Shown one piece after another: positions 16,651 through 21,483 of a stretch of DNA of 46,521 bases (the stretch's first letter is position 1; each line of letters starts with the position of its first letter). The position numbers were made by a program, and so were the translations under genes. Where the stretch lies: sequence record SRR20825006_660; one strand, written 5' to 3'. The notes under the pieces were generated by a model. The model did not search any database and had not been told where the DNA came from. It saw nothing but the letters and a program-made list of their open reading frames with translations.

Positions 16651-17138
16651 GACTTAGGAATATAAACCAATCTATTTTGGTGATTTTCTGCTTCGGCAGG
16701 ACTGGCTATTGCGATCGCATTTTCGGCAGCTTCTCGTAAAAAATGAATTGCTTCAGCTTCGGGTCTGTTTGCAAACATGCGAAGGGCTTGAATACCAAAT
16801 GCATTATTATGCAAATCCATCACACGATCCATTTTTCGGTTTACAAAAAGTTCTTCATGTAAATCTGTAAAACGCTGTGCCCAATCTTGCGCCTGGCGCA
16901 GGCTTTGTGTTTTTTTGTACACCGCCTGGCCTAGAAGAACATTCCAAACGGCGTGTCTAAACGCATTTGCTTTATTGCTTTTATGGTGGGTATTCCCGTA
17001 GTATTTAGTGGCGATGCTCAAGGCTTTTTTAGAGGCCTTTGCCGTCAAAAAAACGTATGCCGGGTTTTGAACAAAAAGACCCGCCAGCTTAAAAAGCTGA
17101 GAAAAACTCAATCCTTTTAAACGGGCAAGTATGCTCAT
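16647..17138 (-). CDS. Hypothetical protein, DUF6973-like
   Basis: NAFRHAVW ... HE ... MDLHNN motif. Confidence 0.7.
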
Positions 17139-18166
17139 CGCTCAGCTTTGTATTCTTTTACGGCTTCAATAAACGCACCGGCATTTTCTAGCGGAATATT
17201 CGGTAGAATACCATGGCCTAGATTCACAATGTATTTGTCTTTTCCAAAAGCGTCAATCATTTCGGTAACCATACGTTTTATTTCCGCAGGAGGCGAAAAC
17301 AAGCGCGTAGGATCAAAGTTTCCTTGAAGCGTAATGTTGCCTCCGGTTAAGTAGCGCGCATTACGTGGGCTGCACGTCCAATCTACACCTAATGCCGAAG
17401 CACCACTTTTTGCCATTTCGCCTAGCGCAAACCAGCAGCCTTTTCCGAAGGCAATCACCGGAATTTCTTCTTTTAAAGCATCAATGATCTGCTGAATGTA
17501 TTGCCAGCTGAATTCTTGATAATCTACAGGAGAGAGCATTCCGCCCCAGCTGTCAAAAACCTGAACGGCATTTACCCCAGCTTTTACTTTCTCTTTTAAA
17601 TATAAAATTGTGGTGTCTGTGATTTTCTGAAGCAGTGCGTGTGCAGCTTCAGGTTGGGTAAAACAAAACTCTTTTGCGATATCAAAGTTTTTTGAACCTT
17701 GACCTTGCACACAATAGCACAAGATCGTCCATGGACTACCGGCAAAACCAATCAACGGAATCTCGTCGTTGAGTTTTTCCTTAGTCATTTTAATGGCGTC
17801 CATCACATAACCCAGTGTGTCGTTAATATCTGGTACGATCACACGCTCTAGGTCTTTGTAAGAACGAATAGGATCTGGCAACCACGGCCCGATGCCCGGC
17901 TTCATCTCCACGTGAATATTCATCGCCTGCGGAATTACCAAAATATCGCTGAATAAAATCGCGGCGTCCATCCCATAACGACGAATGGGTTGCACGGTGA
18001 TCTCACTGGCAAGCTCTGGAGTTTGGCAACGAGTAAAAAAGTCGTATTTCGCTTTGATCTCTTGAAATTCGGGTAAATAACGCCCCGCTTGACGCATCAT
18101 CCACACCGGAGGGCGCTCTACCGTTTCTCCTTTTAATGCTCTTAAAAATAAATCGTTCTTGATCAT
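17135..18166 (-). CDS. hemE: Uroporphyrinogen decarboxylase
   Basis: [36 protein letters not shown] at 18166 (MIKNDLFL). Confidence 0.96.
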
Positions 18167-18199
18167 AATAGTTTCTTGTCGTCTCGAGCGCACCCGAGG

Positions 18200-19252
18200 T
18201 TAGTTTAAAGCCTTTACCGCCCGCGCAATAACGCTCTCAATGGCAGTGGTATTGGCAACGGTAACGTTTTGGGTATGTTTTTGAACTTCGGCAGCAGTGG
18301 TGTTACCAATGCAAACCGAAAGCATATTCTTAAAATGATTTACAGCCGAAAAACTTTGTACTCCAGACGGACTGAAAAAAAGAACGGCGTCAAATTCCTG
18401 CTTAAATTCTTGCGGATTACTTTTTGTTTTATAGCAAACGATTTCCTCAAAAGACACTTGATTTTTAGTCAAATGTTCCGGAAGTTCGTCTCTTCTTATT
18501 GCACTGCAAAAGAATGAGAAATGCGCGTTTTTATGGTTTTTTACGATAAAATCGGCTAAATCTGCTGCATTTTGAGCGGTTTTCACCACTTTAAAACCTT
18601 TTTTGATTAAGGACCTTTCGGTTTTAGAACCTACGCAAAAACAGCTGAACGTTTCGGTATTTAAATCGGGTTGCTTGTTTAAAAAAGCCTGAACCCCATT
18701 TTTACTCGTGAAAATCAGATTTTCTAAGTTCTTCGGAAATTCAACATCCAGAAATTCAATTTGAATCGCATCATATTCAACCACCGAAAAACCAGCGCCC
18801 AAAATCAAATTCTTTTGAGCAGAAGTGAGTTTTTTTGTGGAAAGGATGCTTTTTCCCTCACCCCCGGCCCCTCTCCCGACGGAGAGGGGAGCGGAAGAAT
18901 TCATTTTAGAACTTTTATATTTTGCAATTGTATCTGTAATAACCTTAGGTTCTTTTAAAACTGTTGTATTTGAAAAACGCAGTACCTTGTAGCCAAGAGC
19001 TTTCAGATGTAAATCTCTCAGTTCATCCTTTTCCTTTTGCTCTGGATGGTTATGATAACCACCATCCAACTCGATGACTAGTTTTAATTCATAACAGAAA
19101 AAATCAACGATATAACCTTTAAGAGGATGTTGTCTTCTAAATTTTAGTCCGTTTATTTTACGATCACGAAGCAATTCCCAAAGCACCTTTTCTACTTCGG
19201 TTGAGTCTTGTCTAAGCAAGCGAGCAAGTTTTATGTGATTGCTTCTTTTCAT
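18200..19252 (-). CDS. hemD: Fusion: N-terminal DUF559 (Vsr-like) endonuclease domain plus uroporphyrinogen-III synthase
   Basis: Residues ~1-110 carry LR..ST..E..LW, FRRQHP, YIVDF, LVIELDGGYH, D..RD..L...GYKVLRFSN. From KSILSTKKL the protein is HemD-like (IFTSKNGV, CVG, FFSPSGV, IGNTTA). Lies between hemC and hemE. Confidence 0.88.
   Translation of the reverse strand: MKRSNHIKLARLLRQDSTEVEKVLWELLRDRKINGLKFRRQHPLKGYIVDFFCYELKLVIELDGGYHNHPEQKEKDELRDLHLKALGYKVLRFSNTTVLKEPKVITDTIAKYKSSKMNSSAPLSVGRGAGGEGKSILSTKKLTSAQKNLILGAGFSVVEYDAIQIEFLDVEFPKNLENLIFTSKNGVQAFLNKQPDLNTETFSCFCVGSKTERSLIKKGFKVVKTAQNAADLADFIVKNHKNAHFSFFCSAIRRDELPEHLTKNQVSFEEIVCYKTKSNPQEFKQEFDAVLFFSPSGVQSFSAVNHFKNMLSVCIGNTTAAEVQKHTQNVTVANTTAIESVIARAVKALN
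18855..18889. repeat. REP-like hairpin repeat, copy 1 (inside the fusion CDS)
   Basis: CCCTCACCCCCGG-CCCCTCTCC-cgac-GGAGAGGGG; translated on the minus strand as PLSVGRGAGGEG. Confidence 0.85.
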
Positions 19253-19259
19253 AAGGGCT

Positions 19260-19294
19260 TCCTTCTCCTTTGGGAGAAGGATTGAGGATGAGGG
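19260..19294. repeat. REP-like hairpin repeat, copy 2 (inverted relative to copy 1)
   Basis: Reverse complement is CCCTCATCCTCAA-TCCTTCTCC-caaa-GGAGAAGGA; 25/35 identical to copy 1 with two compensatory stem changes. Confidence 0.85.
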
Positions 19295-19296
19295 TT

Positions 19297-20214
19297 TTAA
19301 ATTTCTTTCTTAATAGCTTCCATCAATTCGCGGCCGCCTTCTTCCAAAATTTTTAAAGCACATAGCGCACCAAAATCCTGACATTCTGAAACCGGAATGC
19401 TTTCTTTGATCTCTAATTTTTGAGTTCCATCCAGACTGAAAAGCGCTCCGTGAAAATGAATATGGTCGTCTTCAATTTTTGCGATCGCACCAATAGGAGC
19501 GGTACAACCTCCTTCTAATTTCCGAAGAAATTCACGCTCTACTTTTGTGGTAAGCGCTGCATCAGCATCATTGAGTTTTGCACAAGCTTCTTTGCAAAAA
19601 GCATCGTTATCCATCACAGCGATCACCATCGCACCTTGTGCCGGAGCCGGAATCATCCAGTCTAAAACTTTGTGATTCTCGGGCTTTAGATTGATGCGTT
19701 CTAAACCGGCTTTTGCAAAAACAGCCCCCGCCCAATCATTATCGGCAACCTTTTGCAGGCGGGTGTTCACGTTTCCGCGGAGATCAACCACCTGATGCTT
19801 TGGGTGTTTGTTAAGCCATTGCGCTTTGCGGCGTAAACTTCCCGTAGCAATGGTAACAGAATCTGAAAAATCTGTAGCGTTTTTATCAGCTTTAAAAACA
19901 AAAATATCTTCGGTAGCAGCACGAGGTAAAACCGCTCCTTGCACAATGCCTTTAGGGAGTTGCGTGGGAACATCTTTCATAGAATGCACCGCAATATCTA
20001 CGTCGCCGTTGATCATCGCAACATCAAGAGTTTTGGTAAAAATACCGGTTATTCCTAGTTCGTAAAGCGGTTTGTCAAGGATAAGATCTCCGGTTGATTT
20101 TACCGAGATCAACTCGGTTTTATAACCTAAAGATTCCAATTGATTCTGTACGGTGTGTGCCTGCCAAAGCGCTAGTTCGCTATCGCGGGTACCTATGCGT
20201 ATGGTTTTTGCCAA
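19297..20214 (-). CDS. hemC: Hydroxymethylbilane synthase
   Basis: IGTRDSELALWQA, VHSMKDVP, GSLRR, LRGNVNTRL, LEGGCTAPIG. Confidence 0.96.
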   Translation of the reverse strand: MAKTIRIGTRDSELALWQAHTVQNQLESLGYKTELISVKSTGDLILDKPLYELGITGIFTKTLDVAMINGDVDIAVHSMKDVPTQLPKGIVQGAVLPRAATEDIFVFKADKNATDFSDSVTIATGSLRRKAQWLNKHPKHQVVDLRGNVNTRLQKVADNDWAGAVFAKAGLERINLKPENHKVLDWMIPAPAQGAMVIAVMDNDAFCKEACAKLNDADAALTTKVEREFLRKLEGGCTAPIGAIAKIEDDHIHFHGALFSLDGTQKLEIKESIPVSECQDFGALCALKILEEGGRELMEAIKKEI

Positions 20215-20217
20215 AGC

Positions 20218-21483
20218 TTAGTTATTTTGAAGTTTAAACACTTTTTGAATCAACTCCAGACTTTCGGTATTTGAAAAATCCTCGGTTTTTAAGTGTTTTG
20301 CAAACTGAGTAGTAATTTTTTGAATGATGCGCTCGCTTATGATTTCGGCTTGTTCTTCATTAAAACCATCAATTTTTTTGCGCTGATTGTCGATCTCTCC
20401 ATCTTTAAAATCGGCCAATTTCATCTTTAAAGCGCGAATGGTGGGAGCAAATTGGCGCGCGGTTAACCACTCGTAAAATTCCTCCTGAATTTCCTCGATA
20501 ATGGCTTCAGCCTGCGGCAATTGCTTTTTGCGGCGATTGAGCGTATCGTTGGTGATTTTTGAAAGCTGATCAAGATGCACCAGGCTCACGCCGTTTACTT
20601 CTTCAACGTTTTCATTTACGTTTTTCGGAATGCTCAGATCGAGAATAAGTAAAGGTTTCTTGAGGTATAAAAGCTCTTTTGAAATGGTAGGCTTTTGTGC
20701 GCCAGTTGCCACAATGAGCACATCTGCTTGAGCGATTTCCGACTGAATATCAGCGTAATCCTTTACAATAAGATTGAATTTCCCCGCGATACGTTCGGCT
20801 TTATCTTTAGTGCGGTTGATGAGCGTGATGTGGTCGTTTTTGGTGTGTTTTACCAAATTTTCACAGGTATTACGCCCAATTTTTCCGGTTCCGAAAAGCA
20901 AAATGTTCTTTTCTGAAATAAAAGGAACACGGGATAACATATATTGAACCGAAGCAAAACTCACTGAAGTTGCTCCGCTCGAAATATTGGTTTCATTTTT
21001 TATGCGCTTACTCGCCTGAATCACGGCATTGATCAATCGCTCCATAAACGGATTGACCAGATTGAGTTTTTTAGCACGTTTAAAGCCGCTTTTTAACTGA
21101 CTTATAATTTCAAAATCTCCTAGAATCTGACTGTCAAGACCAGTGCCTACTTTAAAAAGATGCTCGACGGCTTGCTCGTTTTTGTACTCGTAAGAGACCG
21201 CTTTAAACTCTTCAATGGTGCCGCGCGTGTGCTCGCATAACAATTTGATGAGGTCTAAAGGTTCTTGAGCAAAACCATACAATTCGGTACGGTTGCAGGT
21301 AGAAATAATACTCAAGCCTTCAATACCTTCCTCGTGAGCACGACTTAAAATCGCTTCTTGAATGGTACTATCAACACTAAAATGCCCGCGCGTTTCAGCA
21401 TCAGCTTTTAAATAGCTTAAGCCAATGGCGAAAAAATCACCGGGATAAGCCGGGTAAAAATGTCGTTTGCCGTTTGTATTCAT
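20218..21483 (-). CDS. hemA: Glutamyl-tRNA reductase
   Basis: STCNRTELY, GLDSQILGD.EI, GTGKIG, DLSIPKNV; ATG 21483 lies just downstream of a promoter box. Confidence 0.95.
   Translation of the reverse strand: MNTNGKRHFYPAYPGDFFAIGLSYLKADAETRGHFSVDSTIQEAILSRAHEEGIEGLSIISTCNRTELYGFAQEPLDLIKLLCEHTRGTIEEFKAVSYEYKNEQAVEHLFKVGTGLDSQILGDFEIISQLKSGFKRAKKLNLVNPFMERLINAVIQASKRIKNETNISSGATSVSFASVQYMLSRVPFISEKNILLFGTGKIGRNTCENLVKHTKNDHITLINRTKDKAERIAGKFNLIVKDYADIQSEIAQADVLIVATGAQKPTISKELLYLKKPLLILDLSIPKNVNENVEEVNGVSLVHLDQLSKITNDTLNRRKKQLPQAEAIIEEIQEEFYEWLTARQFAPTIRALKMKLADFKDGEIDNQRKKIDGFNEEQAEIISERIIQKITTQFAKHLKTEDFSNTESLELIQKVFKLQNN

Follow-up and report, generated by a model that had tools for sequence, protein, structure and literature searches.

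A small nuclease gene of the DUF559 family is inserted at the start of hemD in a stretch of 46,521 nucleotides (nt) from sequence record SRR20825006_660, below called the window. The gene lies between two inverted hairpin repeats, here named arms, and is fused in frame to hemD. The anatomy of the insert, the insertion itself, its recurrent presence and absence in relatives, purifying selection on the nuclease, and a link between such nucleases and such arms across phyla are established. Our best explanation, to which we assign a probability of roughly 0.55, is that the insert belongs to a widespread family of small, selfish nuclease cassettes and behaves in a homing-like way at the hemD start. 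Genome-wide counts were taken from the nearest genome compared, G001, and from the genus Leeuwenhoekiella (23 genomes), below simply the genus.

The nuclease and HemD parts share a single open reading frame (ORF). DUF559 (PF04480) was found in it by Pfam at residues 7-111 (E-value 1.6e-36, 124.9 bits against a cut-off of 20.6, positions 4-106 of the 109 in the profile). This agrees with the first-pass annotation of the window, which had named a DUF559/Vsr-like nuclease with intact motifs; the motifs quoted there are present in the translation. The HEM4 family covers residues 149-342 (positions 6-230 of 231). The only other Pfam family matched in the fused ORF was MTES_1575, below its cut-off. 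The ORF contains no ATG, GTG or TTG in frame ahead of the HemD part, and insert-free relatives align to it from residue 134-135 on. The two parts are joined in frame by a linker, ..PLSVGRGAGGEG.., encoded by the right (hemD-side) arm. The identical arrangement, with 96% identity, is found in G001.

A profile of 12 DUF559 proteins, the window's copy being the first, matches the PDB entries 3hrl (E-value 5.2e-32) and 3r3p (E-value 3.6e-5). The former is a solved DUF559 protein, and the latter is the catalytic domain of the proven homing endonuclease I-Bth0305I (PMC3239194). An alignment of 12 relatives shows no variation at residues D50, E61, D63, H67, R79, R92 and N95, all of which the window's copy also has. 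The acidic and histidine residues of the predicted active site appear intact, the catalytic roles of individual residues being assigned by analogy with the family. In eight genome pairs, the ratio of non-synonymous to synonymous substitution rates (dN/dS, with dS above 1 regarded as saturated) is 0.03-0.14 for the DUF559 part, 0.04-0.06 for hemC, 0.13-0.21 for hemD and 0.01-0.03 for hemE. Such ratios point to strong purifying selection on the nuclease, which is probably kept functional.

The arms form the longest inverted pair between positions 18600 and 19500 (18855-18892 against 19257-19294, 38 nt, 74% complementary). By hand count, the two 35-nt modules within this pair have 25 bases in common. 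In each module a perfect stem of 9 bp closes a loop of 4 nt, and the stems differ by two compensatory pairs, exactly as first described. The folding energies of the two repeats are -13.1 and -9.2 kcal/mol (z-scores -2.8 and -4.1). A degenerate pattern of the module has two matches in the window, the two arms themselves, with 0.01 expected.

The CCCTCA terminus of the modules belongs to a third block, a mirror image of the hairpin's purine arm. In the left (hemC-side) arm, the third block CCTCATCCT corresponds to the purine arm GGAGAAGGA; in the other arm, CCTCACCCC corresponds to GGAGAGGGG. In both cases 8 of 9 positions are triplex-compatible, and between the two arms the third block varies together with the stem. 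Among 619 distinct 8-bp pyrimidine/purine hairpins from the loci collected, 193 have a third block compatible in at least 7 of 8 positions, against 55 of 619 in a backwards-read control, both counts being inflated because overlapping 8-mers of one stem were counted separately. The mean compatibility of the third block with its own stem is 6.93 of 8, whereas permuted partners give 6.03 (maximum 6.13 in 500 permutations). The blocks covary across modules. By their architecture, the modules are of the BoxC/PIT/TMECO intrastrand triplex-motif type. The hairpins of the first-pass annotation stand, but they are not classical repetitive extragenic palindromes (REPs), to which they had been likened.

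A terminator and promoter consensus scan had no entry at either arm, and its totals were not above those for shuffled sequences. The arms were thus rejected as candidate transcription terminators or promoters. Sub-threshold matches to the whalefall-1 RNA of Rfam (RF01762, gathering score 37) were observed at the left arm of the window (19259-19295, plus strand, 19.2 bits) and at one arm of another locus (L110:1127-1161, minus strand, 27.3 bits). The printed consensus of RF01762 consists of a CUCUCC/GGAGAG hairpin, then AGGGUGAGG. Judging by this similarity, the metagenome small RNA motif whalefall-1 may be the same sort of DNA repeat; we regard this as a lead and not as membership.

The proposal that the nuclease had been inserted at the hemC-hemD junction is confirmed by empty sites. 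In the genus, DUF559 and HemD share one frame in 9 genomes and HemD stands alone in 12; G010 is a fragmented assembly with the pieces on two contigs, and the incomplete genome G003 has no hemD match. A metagenome scan with the end of hemC yielded five alleles, three filled and two empty (L190 and L192); a scan with a 25-nt word of hemD had no match. Both empty metagenome alleles fall within the window's own subclade of seven rows (support 100) and differ from the window at about 5-6% of nucleotides. L192 is the row nearest to the window, with 36 differences in 690 nt of hemC against 40 in 690 for G001.

Junctions were read for the window and for 9 filled genomes, as well as for 11 empty genomes of the genus and 2 from other genera; G015 was left out of this set, having no hemC beside its hemD. 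Compared with the closest empty alleles, about 428 bp (18854-19281) stand in place of 5 nt, (T/C)AATG, which hold the hemD start codon. Empty sites in the window's clade likewise contain the outermost 13 nt of the left module, CCCTCATCCTCAA. Thus the indel spans about 428 bp rather than 18855-19294 as initially delimited. No target duplication was found in the junction comparisons. Of the two TTTT runs once suspected to be one, the first is the hemC stop codon with the spacer, and the second is Lys codon 2 of hemD, which occurs in empty alleles too. In the alignment of filled and empty alleles, the nuclease gene and the arms are gained or lost as one unit. All 10 filled alleles have the same orientation and the in-frame fusion to hemD, and in the window's clade a single junction form is common to the empty alleles, with a CCCTCAYCC tag directly before the ATG. 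As for gain versus loss, neither junction form yields the other without extra small changes.

Filled and empty states are scattered over the hosts. On the tree of PBP1a (24 rows), a gene located 15 kb away, they need at least 7 changes, of which 4 are forced by well-supported branches. Labels shuffled on the same tree need 7.9 changes on average, and 174-177 of 500 shuffles were as low; the states cluster no better than shuffled labels. The trees of the flanking genes agree with the host tree. In the filled/empty sister pairs G023/G006 and G012/G007, the flanking genes differ at 8-13% of third codon positions. The empty alleles of G016 and G007 have in common the ATG and first codons that are absent from the filled sister G012, and the length of the hemD 5' end retained varies among the filled alleles. 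Together with the shared junction form of the empty alleles, these observations make a single insertion followed by random deletions unlikely.

Nucleases of this family are linked to inverted arms far outside the genus. In a wider collection, searched with four sequences, 425 of 513 candidate stretches encode DUF559 relatives, and the best 80 were analysed. The flank-versus-flank inverted-repeat score was at least 28 in 49 of 78 loci, as opposed to 4 of 146 placements shifted by 800 bp; the flanks of the other two loci were too short for scoring. Triplex-motif-like arms were observed in all 22 loci inspected, which come from Bacteroidota, Chloroflexota, Proteobacteria, Planctomycetota and other groups. 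Co-location of the repeats with DUF559 genes, proposed as a test in the first-pass annotation, holds for the relative loci but not for the solo copies of G001 described below.

Many of these nucleases are parts of larger proteins. Open frames of at least 190 amino acids (aa) contain 43 of the 80 relatives, and 35 of 37 such frames carry host domains in Pfam (six Leeuwenhoekiella loci were left out). The host domains are HemD (8 cases, including other Flavobacteriaceae lineages), DegT, FemAB-like, LeuRS, MnmE, QueC, restriction-modification methylases and others. In the nuclease-domain tree, 15 HemD-associated rows form one clade (support 94), which suggests a single site-faithful lineage over several Flavobacteriaceae genera. 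Another well-supported clade comprises near-identical nucleases in FemAB-like, DegT and GT2 genes. In genomes G024, G025, G027, G030, G031 and G035, which belong to other genera, the HemD matches were observed in frames of 529-545 aa, approximately the summed length of HemC and HemD; by their length, these may be hemC-hemD fusions or cases of read-through.

Other DUF559 genes of the genus are also bracketed by inverted modules, and the arm sequence is specific to each nuclease clade. Among the genus loci, CCTCAYCC is found downstream in antisense orientation in all 10 HemD-type loci and in none of 18 others, whereas AACCACCY occurs as a bracketing motif at 9 of the 13 loci belonging to a second clade and at none of 10 HemD-type loci. 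A DUF559 cassette is present in frame inside MetH, the B12-dependent methionine synthase, in 14 of the 23 genomes (for example, L067:2049-4544, minus strand). It lies between the B12-binding_2 (B12 cap) and B12-binding domains, flanked by poly-C/poly-G triplex-like modules. In the five genomes checked, G001, G020, G011, G016 and G006, metH is uninterrupted. The G016 MetH linker ..SPAEDERGAG.. resembles a repeat remnant. Two further DUF559 clades (L049-L066) were also observed: the MKKQIHNLK type has double-hairpin arms ending in GGGGTGGTT, and the MANKIIPYR type has CATCCCCTCC arms. Copies of both types have inverted bracketing modules of their own, and several contain stop codons.

Modules occur without a nuclease gene as well. 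Of the nine exact matches to the module pattern in G001, seven lie away from the hemD locus, and 50 exact matches (2-9 per genome) were found in 13 of the 23 genomes of the genus, against none in the control. Additional copies of the repeat had been anticipated in the first-pass annotation. A backwards-pattern control in G001 (8 vs 15 matches) is invalid for a mirror-symmetric motif, and the exact-match pattern was relied on. The solo copies of G001 (L006-L016) are located in long gene-poor stretches dense in other repeats, in a few regions of two contigs. The repeats around them include a CCCGATAGCTATCGGG palindrome and conserved flanks preceding the module.

A surface loop of HemD (about position 18655 in the window, where it is empty) carries an in-frame repeat-encoded insert, such as KLPSPAGEGPGMR, in about 10 of 22 aligned relatives. 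It is occupied in L030 (G007), L029 (G016), L023 (G012), L026 (G019), L025 (G022) and others, and exact matches to the triplex-motif pattern were found inside hemD of G007 and G016. Hence solo modules are gained and lost inside coding sequences too. Given the off-locus copies and the flanking of nucleases by arms throughout the family, the early comparison with a REP-plus-nuclease element holds as an analogy.

On the minus strand, the gene order is hemA, hemC, the fused ORF, hemE. The features of the locus are listed in Table 1.

Table 1. Features of the hemC-hemD-hemE region (positions in the window)
Feature	Position	Strand	Remarks
hemC (porphobilinogen deaminase)	19297..20214	-	upstream neighbour in the hemA-hemC-hemD-hemE operon; ORF translation and Pfam
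hemE (uroporphyrinogen decarboxylase)	17135..18193	-	downstream neighbour; ORF translation and Pfam
Entire fused ORF (350 aa), DUF559 joined to HemD by the repeat-encoded linker	18200..19252	-	single frame
DUF559 (Vsr-like PD-(D/E)xK) part	18905..19252	-	own ATG 19252-19250; Pfam domain 18920-19234
HemD (uroporphyrinogen-III synthase) part	18200..18853	-	without a start codon of its own; Pfam HEM4 18227-18808
Left (hemC-side) arm, triplex-motif-type module	19260..19294	-	between the hemC stop codon and the cassette ATG
Left arm, third block and spacer	19294-19282		
Left arm, pyrimidine arm	19281-19273		
Left arm, loop	19272-19269		
Left arm, purine arm	19268-19260		
Right (hemD-side) arm, same module type, inverted	18855..18889	+	translated through in frame on the coding strand
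Right arm, third block and spacer	18855-18867	+	
Right arm, stem	18868-18876	+	
Right arm, loop	18877-18880	+	
Right arm, stem	18881-18889	+	
Filled-allele-specific stretch, about 428 bp	18854..19281	-	3 filled and 4 empty alleles aligned; junctions of 10 filled and 13 empty alleles

The homing-like reading can be formulated as follows. The unit is a DUF559 gene of about 115 codons between two inverted triplex-motif modules. It has replaced the few bases with the hemD ATG, so that HemD is translated from the cassette ATG as a DUF559-linker-HemD protein in which the right arm supplies a Gly-rich linker. In this way the nuclease is expressed by the host operon. The nuclease would nick or cut empty alleles at or near the junction including the CCCTCAYCC tag, or alternatively at the folded arms, and host recombination would then copy the filled allele in. 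Empty alleles would be restored by deletion or by import of an empty allele, leading to a cycle of gain and loss, and the solo modules elsewhere would be gene-less derivatives of cassettes. Considered in these terms, the transposase-free mobile unit of the first-pass annotation is plausible, its steps of movement being proposed here as a model.

A broader formulation, for which we would put the odds slightly short of even, is that DUF559 is the protein partner of the BoxC/PIT/TMECO repeats and possibly also of whalefall-1. The nucleases and repeats would then constitute a pan-bacterial class of nuclease-driven cassettes, spreading in a homing-like manner and surviving in essential genes by in-frame read-through without splicing. 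The HemD lineage would be a site-specific homing cassette that cycles between filled and empty states across Flavobacteriaceae.

A number of observations weigh against the homing-like reading. Firstly, its mechanism, which we consider somewhat better than an even bet, is inferred. Secondly, the DUF559 part of about 115 aa has no separate DNA-binding domain in Pfam. Thirdly, the solo modules of G001 are not near any DUF559 gene, the HemD fusion being the only DUF559 of this genome. The CCCTCAYCC tag in the empty sites could be a footprint, could belong to the target, or could be what is left of a solo repeat. The identity of the DUF559 part to the window's copy drops with host distance (96, 96, 75, 73, 73, 74, then 56-58%), and the DUF559 tree is compatible with the host tree, this comparison being too poorly resolved to discriminate (one of eight inner branches well supported). 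Thus much of the pattern can be accounted for by long vertical residence together with loss.

Finally, between the window and G001 the cassette is more alike than its flanks, with 8 differences in 427 nt against 59 in 960 (p 0.00035). However, the difference-free tract of 398 nt (-51 to +347) takes in the hemC end along with most of the cassette, and a similar tract of 420 nt lies 700 nt upstream. As the identical tract enters hemC and has a counterpart elsewhere, we rejected the explanation that the cassette is younger than its flanks owing to cassette-specific transfer; its similarity in this pair is best described as ordinary recombination mosaicism and is no proof of self-driven transfer. 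The other informative pairs show no significantly lower divergence in the cassette than in the flanks (G020 and M191 being identical).

Signs of recombination were also observed in a wider region. From about 17000 to 20800, tracts of about 400 nt that are identical between the window and G001 (L019) alternate with regions having 5-12 differences per 100 nt; the identical tracts cover the hemC end with the cassette and the hemA/hemC border. This mosaic suggests frequent homologous recombination between these lineages. In G011 (L021), hemD groups with the window's clade (support 94), whereas hemC, hemE and PBP1a group with those of G012 and G007. Between G011 and the window, DUF559 and hemD have lower dS values than hemC and hemE have. 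The tree conflict and the dS values together mark the DUF559-hemD segment as recombinant. Alleles are therefore exchanged by homologous recombination, which alone is no proof of self-driven spread.

The main rival to the homing-like reading, in our opinion unlikely but to be taken seriously, draws on the same data. It supposes an old passive resident: one entry at the hemD start in an ancestor within Flavobacteriaceae, after which the alleles were inherited vertically and shuffled between related species by ordinary homologous recombination, the nuclease being retained for a reason, selfish or at the host level, that has nothing to do with movement. Indeed, the divergence of DUF559 follows that of the hosts, the HemD-associated nucleases form a single clade, hemC and hemE of G011 are farther from the window's clade than its DUF559-hemD segment is, and the difference-free stretches of about 400 nt that the window shares with G001 cover the cassette and other places alike. 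On the other hand, at least 7 changes in 24 rows, including those in clades differing by 5-13% at silent or total sites, constitute a high turnover for a neutral indel. The strong purifying selection on the nuclease also speaks against this scheme, no host role being evident. Moreover, the near-identical nucleases in FemAB-like, DegT and GT2 genes imply that some members of the family reach new sites.

Another possibility, which we consider improbable, is a host function: the nuclease would be a Vsr-like mismatch or repair enzyme, or DUF559-HemD an adaptive bifunctional protein, and the repeats would be generic intergenic ones present by chance. According to the text of PMC12907096, the Caulobacter DUF559 protein VsrA is functionally linked to a cytosine methyltransferase and has been proposed to be a repair nuclease; it triggers a DNA-damage response upon loss of the methyltransferase, which its authors interpret as repair. 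In the literature search, no other in vivo sign of activity of the DUF559 family was found. The conserved nuclease and the in-frame fusion in 10 of 10 filled alleles would also fit a host role. However, half of the genus and near-identical environmental relatives lack the cassette, and the nuclease gene is gained and lost as a unit together with the arms. Pairing of nucleases with arms across phyla is far above the control, the arm families are clade-specific, and cassettes of the same kind reside inside unrelated genes.

Slightly less probable still is a single-strand peel-and-paste element resembling IS200/IS605 or the REP systems with their REP-associated tyrosine transposases (RAYTs). In such a scheme the folded arms would be recognised on single-stranded DNA at the replication fork, and DUF559 would excise the element precisely and reinsert it next to the short CCCTCAYCC tag, without target duplication. 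The arms can fold as a hairpin plus third block on either strand, a target duplication is absent, the same tag stands directly before the ATG in all empty alleles of the window's clade, and gene-less modules are dispersed in genomes, some of them in frame inside hemD of relatives. However, PD-(D/E)xK nucleases hydrolyse DNA, and we know of none that forms covalent strand-transfer intermediates of the Y1/HUH type. The fused ORF contains no Y1 or other transposase domain in Pfam, and clean excision cannot produce the empty junctions, where the ATG and neighbouring bases differ.

A programmed inversion switch, in which the inverted arms would let the segment flip and toggle hemD expression, is very hard to credit: DUF559 proteins are enriched (odds ratio 14.3) among the predicted programmed-inversion targets in the text of an inverted-repeat survey (PMC9881135), an enrichment that we regard as an indirect trace of inverted arms, but the arms are only 74% complementary over 38 nt, one orientation was observed in 10 of 10 filled alleles, a flip would destroy an essential-pathway gene, and the cassette adjoins haem genes, with no recombinase domain in the 12 longest other ORFs of the window (no systematic invertase screen of the neighbourhood was made).

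To our knowledge, hardly any function has been assigned within the very large DUF559 family. Triplex-motif repeats, for their part, have long been catalogued with no mechanism for their origin, and the text of their survey reports no mobility function nearby (PMC4666352). If DUF559 and the triplex repeats belong together, the repeats gain an enzyme, DUF559 gains a role, and selfish DNA is seen to have a new lifestyle in essential genes, namely that of a permanent translated extra domain. For annotation, DUF559-HemD proteins and MetH proteins with an internal DUF559 are to be treated as insertions and not as designed multidomain enzymes. The hemD locus offers a base-resolved series of filled and empty sites, a site-faithful lineage, and a host gene whose start codon has been replaced. 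Filled and empty alleles only a few percent apart occur in cultivable, harmless marine bacteria (Leeuwenhoekiella). Because such close alleles are combined with a junction known to the base and a selectable hemD phenotype, the hypothesis is directly testable.

The literature search, which extended to articles without their supplements, found no work linking DUF559 to triplex-motif repeats or cassettes. The repeat type is known already, but without a known enzyme; the DUF559-repeat cassettes are apparently an undescribed, widespread kind of selfish DNA. The published consensus of the BoxC/PIT/TMECO repeats is CCCTCNCCC N3-6 GGGNGAGGG N3 GGGNGAGGG (Holder et al. 2015, PMC4666352). In the text of that survey, no transposase or integrase is reported near the repeats, and the words endonuclease and DUF are absent. 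The modules described here are similar in having a pyrimidine block, a purine complement and a mirrored third block, as well as in their many dispersed copies, often in inverted pairs (PMC4666352). The right arm, CCCTCTCC-N-GGGAGAGGG-N5-GGGTGAGGG, is near the TMECO type B copies in Table 1 of the survey (PMC4666352). Compared by eye with the TMECO consensus, its blocks 2 and 3 are exact, a single mismatch falls in block 1, and the second spacer measures 5 nt rather than 3; relative to the same consensus, the left arm is a T-rich variant. The difference is that the modules of this locus serve as arms for a cassette with a nuclease gene; their triplex is a predicted one.

In E. coli K-12, TMECO copy no. 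9 was observed about 170 nt downstream of the DUF559 gene ycjD (L099:1530-2340, in the order fabI-ycjD-sapF), and the 3' end of ycjD contains a degenerate hairpin. Of 5426 complete E. coli genomes, 3346 cover at least 80% of the fabI-ycjD-sapF stretch. The one alternative examined, in an O157:H7 genome, is a different, larger segment with a TetR regulator and an efflux operon. The polymorphism of this region is uninformative on cassette mobility.

The REP/RAYT (TnpA-REP) systems have a comparable layout: one small gene lies between inverted hairpin repeats that also occur without the gene, and the repeat families are specific to gene lineages. However, the resemblance is one of layout only. 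The enzyme here is a PD-(D/E)xK nuclease of the DUF559 family and not a Y1/HUH protein, no Y1 family having been matched in the Pfam scan. Moreover, the repeats here have a third mirrored block, the cassettes are often in frame in host genes, and the solo copies are few (2-9 exact ones per genome).

Palindromic repeats tolerated within coding genes are also known as the Rickettsia palindromic elements and as in-frame MITEs (miniature transposable elements with inverted repeats), with which the right-arm linker and the HemD-loop modules can be compared. In contrast to the cassette, the elements described in the text of PMC10969869 carry no gene for an enzyme, and they are unrelated to it in both sequence and structure. 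Inteins, too, are selfish nuclease-bearing inserts translated within housekeeping proteins; unlike them, the insert described here has no Hint or splicing domain in Pfam and is not removed.

The Vsr-like EDxHD homing endonucleases, represented by I-Bth0305I (3r3p), have a related fold and the same kind of presence/absence polymorphism at one conserved site (PMC3239194). As far as the text of that paper describes it, I-Bth0305I has a NUMOD-type DNA-binding region, which is lacking in the cassette nuclease. Here, in addition, no intron or intein is involved: the insert is bracketed by structured inverted arms and remains as an extra domain of the HemD protein.

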